Shown here one piece after another: positions 31,447 through 31,645 of a stretch of DNA of 64,000 nt. The stretch's first letter is position 1. Each line of letters starts with the position of its first letter. The notes under the pieces are model-generated. The model was given only the letters and a program-made list of their open reading frames with translations, was not told the DNA's origin and ran no database searches. Source of the stretch: a virus (lineage: Duplodnaviria; Caudoviricetes); IMG/VR virus record IMGVR_UViG_3300031555_003626, positions 160,001 through 224,000 of that record. The stretch is one strand, 5' to 3'. Position numbers and translations under genes: made by a program.

Positions 31447-31645
31447 GCTTCCGTAGCTCAGCTGGTAGAGCAACAGACTTTGATTGAATCGTTTAAATGG
31501 GTTATTAGATTAGTGAATGGTATAAACCTAATTTAATAAGTTCTGTTCGTAGGACATCGGCCTGATAGCCGAAGATGTGAGTTCAAGTCTCGTTTCAGTC
31601 ACCATAATCTGTGGGTCGCGGGTTCGATTCCCGCCGGAGGCACCA
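31447..31645 (+). tRNA. tRNA-Lys(UUU) interrupted by nested tRNA-like element 31482..31604
   Basis: Removal restores ACAGA-CTTTTAA-TCTGT; canonical D and T arms; CCA. Confidence 0.85.

Follow-up and report, generated by a model that had tools for sequence, protein, structure and literature searches.

How can an RNA that is itself shaped like a tRNA reside within the anticodon loop of another tRNA, and by which route might it be removed from there? This question is raised by a locus of a phage belonging to the Caudoviricetes (Duplodnaviria), IMG/VR record IMGVR_UViG_3300031555_003626. The record comprises 233 kb and is judged complete; the stretch analysed, hereafter called the window, spans 64,000 nucleotides and corresponds to bases 160001 to 224000 of it. 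A tRNA cluster occupies approximately 29.5 to 37 kb of the window. ARAGORN predicts 13 tRNAs and skips the segment from 31447 to 31645, which the Rfam tRNA model covers from 31447 to 31642, across an insert, with a score of 53.1 bits. Direct reading of this segment reveals a tRNA-Lys(UUU) gene whose anticodon loop, CUUU/UAA, is broken after U35, i.e. between bases 35 and 36, by 123 nt. The gene is composed as follows:

31447 to 31481, plus strand: 5' exon of tRNA-Lys(UUU) with acceptor 5' strand, D arm, anticodon stem 5' strand and C32 U33 U34 U35 (assigned by the Rfam model, the cloverleaf fold and identity to the homologue L138 described below)
31482 to 31604, plus strand: insert of 123 nt
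31605 to 31645, plus strand: 3' exon of tRNA-Lys(UUU) with U36 A37 A38, anticodon stem 3' strand, variable region, T arm, acceptor 3' strand and A-CCA (likewise identified in L138)

Upon deletion of exactly 31482 to 31604 a 76-nt RNA is obtained which folds into a perfect tRNA-Lys(UUU) cloverleaf with the loop CUUUUAA and which ARAGORN calls Lys. The first-pass annotation of this DNA, made from the sequence alone, had located an insert at precisely these positions, and both direct reading and folding bear this out. The insert begins at position +1 of a 7-bp acceptor stem of its own, contains a T arm and ends exactly in A-CCA. The phage contains three paralogous tRNA-shaped introns located in anticodon loops, namely that of tRNA-Lys and the following two:

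29621 to 29688, plus strand: 68-nt tRNA-shaped intron of tRNA-Leu(UAA) (gene 29586 to 29740), situated between bases 34 and 35, its anticodon arm being of reduced length; scored alone, it reaches 35.9 bits with the tRNA model
30845 to 30907, plus strand: 63-nt tRNA-shaped intron of tRNA-Gln(UUG) (gene 30811 to 30947), situated between bases 35 and 36, without anticodon arm

The anticodon-arm loop of the Leu intron comprises five nucleotides only (CGCAA), and the insert of tRNA-Lys is about 50 nt longer than either paralogue. In all three genes the removal of the intron restores a 7-nt anticodon loop, and ARAGORN calls the spliced forms Lys, Leu and Gln. The phage harbours no uninterrupted tRNA gene for Lys, Gln or Leu(UAA), so that the split copies are the sole ones; Lys codons account for 7.6% of the codons of its long open reading frames (ORFs). 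Besides the Lys gene, the Rfam tRNA model spans three further over-long genes, namely 29586 to 29737 and 30811 to 30944, which correspond to the Leu and Gln genes, as well as 31861 to 32020. The latter lies within a tRNA-Tyr(GUA)-like gene (31861 to 32023; Rfam tRNA 31.8 bits) whose anticodon arm is intact and whose variable arm is replaced by about 85 nt, a type of insertion which differs from the introns in the anticodon; a normal tRNA-Tyr is present at 33678 to 33763. As a separate observation on the Leu gene we note that, within its precursor, 29613 to 29624 can pair with 29640 to 29651 (12 bp, one G.U), which joins the 5' exon/intron junction to the interior of the intron. The minimum-energy fold of the full Leu precursor uses this helix in place of the anticodon stem and the intron acceptor, which could be due to chance or reflect a folding switch.

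Further members of the class to which these introns belong were sought in all collected sequences by a strict structural scan. A hit needed a 7-bp acceptor, a CCA end, a T loop on a T stem of 5 bp and, around the insert, an anticodon stem of 5 bp whose loop counts 7 nt; ARAGORN then had to confirm the spliced form. Six members emerged: the three introns of this phage, the intron of a metagenome contig (L138), a 44-nt intron in a tRNA-Lys gene (L027) and a 75-nt intron in a tRNA-Asn(GUU) gene (L076). The acceptor start at +1, the T arm and the CCA end are selection criteria of the scan, so that their presence in all six members is pre-selected; in the same way, the complete pairing of the six minihelices (72 of 72 pairs) is circular and shows only that the stems differ in sequence. 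When applied to the genome of this phage, the strict scan for the nested design returns three sites, compared to none in five shuffled versions. The interiors enclosed by acceptor and T arm measure 9, 28, 33, 40, 88 and 98 nt. All six introns are preceded by U, and this holds even for tRNA-Leu(UAA), in which the insertion site is 34/35. The same base precedes 15 of 17 tRNA genes of this phage, their leaders usually ending in WTAT, and all of them encode CCA (30268 to 36863). Because they share the U at -1 and the encoded CCA, the introns look to an end-processing enzyme like the phage's own tRNAs. In the case of L076 (2158 to 2232), a complete 139-kb IMG/VR phage, the insert splits tRNA-Asn(GUU) after U35, and ARAGORN takes it for a full tRNA-Gly(UCC) whose anticodon loop has the normal 7 nt. 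The Lys intron is an enlarged new member of this class of introns, which has been observed before and is as yet unexplained.

The enlargement becomes evident from the anatomy of the insert, which reads from 5' to 3' as follows (probabilities are pair probabilities):

31482 to 31488, plus strand: intron acceptor 5' strand GATTGAA, preceded by U at -1 and paired with 31594 to 31600 (0.81 to 1.0)
31489 to 31501, plus strand: 13-nt linker UCGUUUAAAUGGG, unpaired in the minimum-energy fold
31502 to 31539, plus strand: H1, A/U-rich hairpin of 12 bp with a 14-nt loop (0.84)
31540 to 31555, plus strand: H2, hairpin GUUCUG-UUCG-UAGGAC, placed in D-arm position by alignment to the Rfam tRNA model (0.8)
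31557 to 31572, plus strand: H3, hairpin UCGGC-CUGAUA-GCCGA, placed in anticodon-arm position with one loop position deleted relative to the model (about 1.0)
31577 to 31593, plus strand: intron T arm GUGAG-UUCAAGU-CUCGU, within a 24-nt stretch of which 23 positions match the Leu intron
31594 to 31604, plus strand: intron acceptor 3' strand UUCAGUC, discriminator A and CCA (A-CCA at 31601 to 31604), the A of CCA being the end of the intron

The acceptor GATTGAA/TTCAGTC comprises seven base pairs including one U.G. It had been recognised in the first-pass annotation together with the TCGGC-CTGATA-GCCGA arm and its 6-nt loop as well as the 12-bp hairpin, and all three elements are indeed present; H2 had been overlooked. 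The strands of H1, TTATTAGATTAG (31502 to 31513) and CTAATTTAATAA (31528 to 31539), contain one G.U pair. The interior between the acceptor 5' strand and the T arm (31489 to 31576) thus amounts to 88 nt carrying the three hairpins H1 to H3. The entire insert folds with -29.9 kcal/mol (z = -2.07; 2 of 200 shuffled sequences fold equally well). Counted on a single strand, the genome contains 75 hairpins of the grade of H1 (0.32 per kb), compared to one to four per 233 kb in shuffled sequences; H1 is a real helix, though in a genome rich in such helices. Its nature as a repeated or mobile unit is ruled out, since the 233-kb genome contains no second copy of it, and so is that of a terminator, since it is neither followed by a T-run nor called as terminator-like. 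Rfam yields no match to a ribozyme, a group I intron or any other intron family at E up to 1 within 29500 to 38000 or at E up to 10 for the insert, which, given a length of only 123 nt, rules out a group I intron or a small self-cleaving ribozyme.

Where the additional bases reside with respect to the tRNA shape is suggested by the alignment of the insert to the Rfam tRNA model. The insert alone scores 29.9 bits at 31530 to 31601 (gathering threshold 29 bits). In this alignment H2 represents the D arm, A31556 position 26, H3 the anticodon arm and AGAU the variable region, followed by T arm and acceptor. The true 5' acceptor strand is located 48 nt upstream of the match; in its stead, the H1 3' strand serves the model as a surrogate, at the cost of two non-standard pairs. 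According to the best reading, the insert forms a five-way junction of acceptor, H1, H2 in D-arm position, H3 in anticodon-arm position and T arm. As the model aligns H2 as D arm and H3 as anticodon arm, the extra bases would be placed 5' of the D arm, between it and the acceptor strand (31489 to 31539), and not in the D loop. The claim of the first-pass annotation that about 50 extra nucleotides lie in the D loop of the inner element hence stands as to their existence (about 51 nt) but probably not as to their location; a D stem GTTT/AAAC around part of them is ruled out by a pair probability of 0.0. Judged by eye, the linker begins in a manner reminiscent of the D-arm 5' half in the Leu intron.

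To learn which parts of the intron are retained during evolution, relatives of the locus were sought. In GenBank phages, blastn and megablast with the locus and with the entire tRNA cluster returned generic tRNA matches only and no relative. Five DNA patterns (T arm, acceptor, junctions and shared interior motif) run against IMG/VR disclosed no close relative: they produced nothing, ordinary tRNAs or chance coding matches, with the exception of one pattern which brought up the unrelated class members L027 and L076. No relative emerged from a protein-based search of IMG/VR with the kinase-like gene described below, and one pattern run against prokaryote genomes hit three ordinary tRNAs only. 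Among 19 loci found by one pattern in metagenome contigs, L138 is the sole homologue. This 1119-nt contig carries a tRNA array in which a 133-nt intron interrupts tRNA-Lys(UUU) at the same site. With respect to L138 the 5' exon shows 77% and the 3' exon 80% identity, while T arm, acceptor 3' strand and NCCA together reach 86%. The acceptor of the L138 intron is GGTTGAA/TTCAGCC; accordingly, six of seven bases of its 5' strand are identical, and the pair A2:U71 of the present intron is replaced by G2:C71, i.e. by one compensatory pair. The loop and the 5' strand of the T arm are identical. In contrast, the two interiors share 53 identities, compared to a mean of 55 after shuffling. No counterpart of H1 exists in L138, and the helices are out of register. 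The 98-nt interior of L138 is large and structured, but the tRNA model does not match it and recognises solely the T arm of the intron. The two interiors have a single motif in common, ATGG(T)ATAAACCTA, which agrees in 13 of 14 positions (P about 0.02). The expectation raised in the first-pass annotation that the hairpin might be conserved in homologues is therefore not borne out by the only homologue found. The comparison provides direct evidence, at the level of sequence, that selection would act only on the exons and on the minihelix of acceptor, T arm and CCA, with the interior apparently free to vary and to grow. The three precisely bounded cases in this phage and the independent assembly of L138 rule out that the arrangement is an assembly artefact.

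These findings lead us to favour, with a probability of roughly 55%, the reading that the acceptor/T-arm minihelix with its N-CCA tail is the functional part of the intron, that the interior is filler and that splicing would proceed via RNase P, a cut behind CCA and an RNA ligase. The minihelix would be the module read by the enzymes that ordinarily trim the ends of tRNAs. RNase P would cut at position +1 of the intron, leaving a 3'-OH on the 5' exon. An endonuclease, for which an RNase Z able to cut behind CCA or RNase E are candidates, would subsequently cleave right behind CCA, so that the 3' exon begins with a 5'-phosphate. Finally, an RNA ligase of the phage would seal the nick in the anticodon loop, the two sides of which the outer cloverleaf keeps together. 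Ends of the 3'-OH and 5'-phosphate type constitute a substrate which an ATP-dependent RNA ligase joins. Support for this route of ordinary end-trimming enzymes and RNA ligase comes from the U at -1, the encoded CCA and the selection pattern seen in L138. As to the second cut, RNase Z of Thermotoga cuts just past an encoded CCA, and RNase E can in some cases create the CCA end directly (PMC7479834). As to the sealing, Pnkp and Rnl1 of phage T4 reseal the broken anticodon loop of tRNA-Lys (PMC3400036). The phage studied here encodes a protein of the Rnl1 family (49 bits) as well as a protein of the Rnl2 family, the gene of which adjoins that of an RlaP nucleotidyltransferase. A further gene of potential relevance is situated ahead of the cluster:

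25786 to 26712, plus strand: polynucleotide-kinase-like gene, 3 kb upstream of the tRNA cluster (Pfam AAA_33, E = 2e-25)

Its relatives in Bacillus phages, as detected by tblastn, are annotated as polynucleotide kinase and adjoin an RNA or tRNA ligase; its product is possibly an end-healing enzyme. Neither RtcB nor a CCA-adding enzyme nor EndA is encoded in the phage.

Several observations weigh against this reading. The T stem of the intron is weak, with a pair probability of 0.07 and two wobble pairs. The score of the tRNA model barely exceeds the threshold and relies on the surrogate strand, and the assignment of the D arm is a best reading rather than a proof. The non-conservation of H1 is deduced from one homologue and would be compatible with a function of H1 in this lineage. 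Regarding the enzymes, CCA inhibits the RNase Z of many bacteria, and the phage does not encode an RNase Z-like metallo-beta-lactamase protein. Moreover, the complete phage which harbours L076 yields no match to Rnl1 or RtcB and possesses one ligase of the PF09414 family which is not assignable to the RNA or DNA type. Since this phage lacks Rnl1, the ligase step is not tied to Rnl1 in general.

Among the explanations which compete with the minihelix reading, two concern the origin and the fate of the insert. The first-pass annotation had seen three levels of nesting, i.e. a hairpin in the D loop of a tRNA-Ile-derived RNA within tRNA-Lys, and had taken the whole family of inserts to derive from tRNA-Ile. 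The loop CUGAUA indeed lacks only one of the seven letters which make up a GAU anticodon loop, H3 agrees by eye with the anticodon arm of the phage's own tRNA-Ile(GAU) in 13 of 16 aligned positions, and the linker start GUUU-AAAUGGG has the look of a D-arm 5' half, including A14, G18 and G19. For a comparison with known isotypes, 404 non-redundant phage tRNAs were extracted by ARAGORN from the fetched loci, a set biased by the route of fetching. Against this set the arm alone obtains its highest mean score with Ile (7.5 versus 6.7 for the next isotype), yet its top matches are shared at equal score by Val, Ile, Gly and Asp. The T arm with the acceptor most resembles Leu tRNAs, and the composite of the insert, which is closest to Met, Asn, Leu and Asp, shows no preference for Ile. 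An alignment of the inner element with tRNA-Ile in particular is not borne out, and what stands of the tRNA-Ile-like RNA is a tRNA-shaped insert in the anticodon whose likeness to Ile stops at the letters of the loop. ARAGORN does not call the insert and assigns 73 of 2415 interior deletions to a tRNA; these calls uniformly read "tRNA-???(ga)" with varying boundaries, and neither the insert nor any of the deletions is ever called Ile, the loop comprising six instead of seven nucleotides. As 73 different deletions give a tRNA-like call, no discrete third-level unit is definable: H1 is single-copy in the genome, has neither a unique excision boundary nor a tRNA shape of its own, and is missing from L138. 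The model's placement of the additional bases ahead of the D arm and the zero probability of GTTT/AAAC likewise speak against a hairpin in the D loop. The paralogues, which possess a 5-nt loop or no anticodon arm, and the L076 insert with its tRNA-Gly(UCC) call lend no support to a descent of the family from tRNA-Ile. Threefold nesting with an origin from tRNA-Ile accordingly appears very unlikely to us; the Ile-like loop of H3 would be a coincidence or a local relic, and H1 a lineage-specific expansion and no third nested element. Even more improbable is that tRNA-Lys is a dead gene, i.e. a pseudogene into which a tRNA-like fragment was inserted and from which it is never removed. That ARAGORN fails to call the interrupted gene would fit a pseudogene, but both exons remain intact, with 53.1 bits for the tRNA model over the insert, three genes carry inserts with precise boundaries, exons and minihelix are conserved with respect to L138 while the interior has fully diverged, and the genes affected are the only ones for Lys, Gln and Leu(UAA) in a phage with the Lys codon usage given above.

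The remaining alternatives accept that the intron is removed and differ from the minihelix reading in what the interior does or in how the cuts are made. The enlarged interior might be a working RNA module, the excised 123-nt RNA with its CCA tail acting by itself, for instance as a decoy for host nucleases directed against tRNAs or as a partner of an RNA-repair protein. Such a role is suggested by the well-formed helices H1 to H3 (0.8 to 1.0), given that introns of the class can be as short as 44 nt, by the similarly large and structured interior of L138 and the motif common to both, and by the wealth of the phage in structured RNAs (a GOLLD RNA scoring 156 bits) and RNA-repair genes. The likeness to the L138 interior at the level of shuffled sequence with helices out of register, the lack of any Rfam family match and the range of interior lengths from 9 to 98 nt among the members argue to the contrary, and no partner or target was identified; we consider a working module unlikely. 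In a more specific form, which we regard as quite unlikely, the interior would be a cargo delivered by splicing, namely a stable CCA-tailed 123-nt RNA which acts in the infected cell through its mimic of an anticodon arm and its additional arms, for example by soaking up a tRNA-directed nuclease of the host or by aiding the kinase or ligase. If this were true, one gene would give rise to a tRNA and to a second functional RNA. Alternatively, a dedicated endonuclease might leave a 2',3'-cyclic phosphate and a 5'-OH, to be healed by the kinase-like enzyme and sealed by an RNA ligase as in the repair of tRNA-Lys by T4, with the tRNA shape serving folding or recognition by the ligase. The kinase-like gene upstream of the cluster is in favour of it, as healing would be needless after cuts of the RNase P and RNase Z or RNase E type, and so are the genes for Rnl1, Rnl2 and RlaP with the T4 precedent (PMC3400036) and the failure to find in the phage an enzyme known for cutting after CCA. 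A dedicated nuclease, however, leaves unexplained why each member of the class starts exactly at +1 of the acceptor, ends exactly in N-CCA and is preceded by U at -1, as in the ordinary tRNA genes of this phage. In addition, the phage is devoid of an archaeal-type splicing endonuclease, and a bulge-helix-bulge is missing at the junctions, where a loop of 4 by 7 nt separates the anticodon stem from the intron acceptor. This route, too, is in our view rather doubtful.

The surroundings of the split genes contain further RNA features. A promoter-like site precedes the Lys gene:

31307 to 31334, plus strand: TTTGCA-16-TATAAT, about 115 nt upstream of tRNA-Lys (consensus scan, a pattern match only)

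The same scan detected no terminator-like site inside the tRNA-Lys gene. Immediately upstream of tRNA-Leu(UAA), 29513 to 29567 partially match the tRNA model (positions 9 to 63). By eye, a tRNA-like unit is discernible at 32265 to 32370, with an acceptor GGGTATT/AATATCC, a T arm, A-CCA and a 3-nt "anticodon" loop; directly behind it a small hairpin terminates in CACCA. At E up to 1 the unit goes unreported by the Rfam tRNA model. The segment from 32959 to 33042 matches the tRNA-Sec model with 30.9 bits and resembles by eye a long-arm tRNA-Ser(UGA) missed by ARAGORN. A GOLLD RNA is situated within the tRNA cluster at 35494 to 36007 (156.3 bits, above the gathering score) and exhibits, relative to the model, an insertion of about 94 nt with tRNA-like sequence. 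A weak RAGATH-33-like match at 32042 to 32152 (43.6 bits) falls far short of the threshold of 120 bits. Between tRNA genes, a free-standing ORF of 158 amino acids (34071 to 34547) weakly matches HNH endonucleases (E = 0.006, below threshold) and may encode a homing endonuclease of the tRNA region.

Introns resembling the present one have been noted before. Those in tRNA genes of Lak megaphages were called "enigmatic", one of them being an intron which "itself may encode a tRNA" (Devoto et al. 2019, PMC6784885, Fig. 4), and a survey of jumbo phages from 2026 mentions tRNA introns that "could encode another tRNA" (PMC13037316). As in our phage, a tRNA-like insert is present in a phage tRNA gene; those inserts are conserved where present, with relatives lacking them. 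The cases reported there stem from gut megaphages with an alternative genetic code, that of Fig. 4 being located in tRNA-Thr(UGU), whereas here a 233-kb phage harbours paralogues in Lys, Gln and Leu, of which the Lys intron has an 88-nt interior with three hairpins; this comparison is one of descriptions. Both papers are confined to the observation and offer neither a boundary rule nor a mechanism nor an analysis of the conserved parts, and a search of the full-text literature returned no paper with a mechanism for tRNA-shaped phage introns.

With the repair of tRNA-Lys(UUU) by Pnkp and Rnl1 of T4 after cleavage by PrrC (PMC3400036) the route proposed here would share the break in the anticodon loop and a phage ligase of the Rnl1 family. 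In T4, however, the break is damage inflicted by the host, while here it would be part of a programmed maturation which removes an encoded insert. Introns spliced by proteins in archaea and eukaryotes (EndA/TSEN and ligase; PMC4090602) are likewise excised from the anticodon region, with subsequent ligation. They differ in their position, which is 37/38 and not 34/35 or 35/36, and in their ends, a cyclic phosphate and a 5'-OH in place of the 3'-OH and 5'-phosphate proposed here. A bulge-helix-bulge intron, which has 3-nt bulges on either side of a 4-bp helix at its splice sites and an EndA-type endonuclease, is ruled out by the 4 by 7 nt internal loop at the junction and by the absence of PF01974 in a search of the phage genome. 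The site of the Leu(UAA) paralogue, 34/35, coincides with the classic group I site in tRNA-Leu(UAA). Group I introns of bacterial and phage tRNAs, e.g. that of cyanobacterial tRNA-Leu(UAA) (review PMC3984707), correspond to the present introns in their location within the anticodon loop. Yet, with 63 to 123 nt the inserts of our phage are too short for a group I core, and they display a tRNA minihelix in place of a P1-P9 fold.

Outside tRNAs, a tRNA-like processing signal is known from the mascRNA of MALAT1. Like it, the tRNA punctuation of mitochondria and the t-elements of plant mitochondria (PMC1920247) rely on a module of tRNA shape which attracts RNase P and RNase Z and thereby sets the ends of RNAs, much as suggested for the minihelix of the Lys intron. 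In all these systems the flanks are released unjoined; here the flanks are the two halves of one tRNA and ligation is required. Splicing by ordinary tRNA end-trimming enzymes in conjunction with an RNA ligase would be new for any tRNA, and with selection on minihelix and exons and with end signals shared with ordinary phage tRNA genes, the locus sharpens the question of how tRNA-shaped phage introns are removed.

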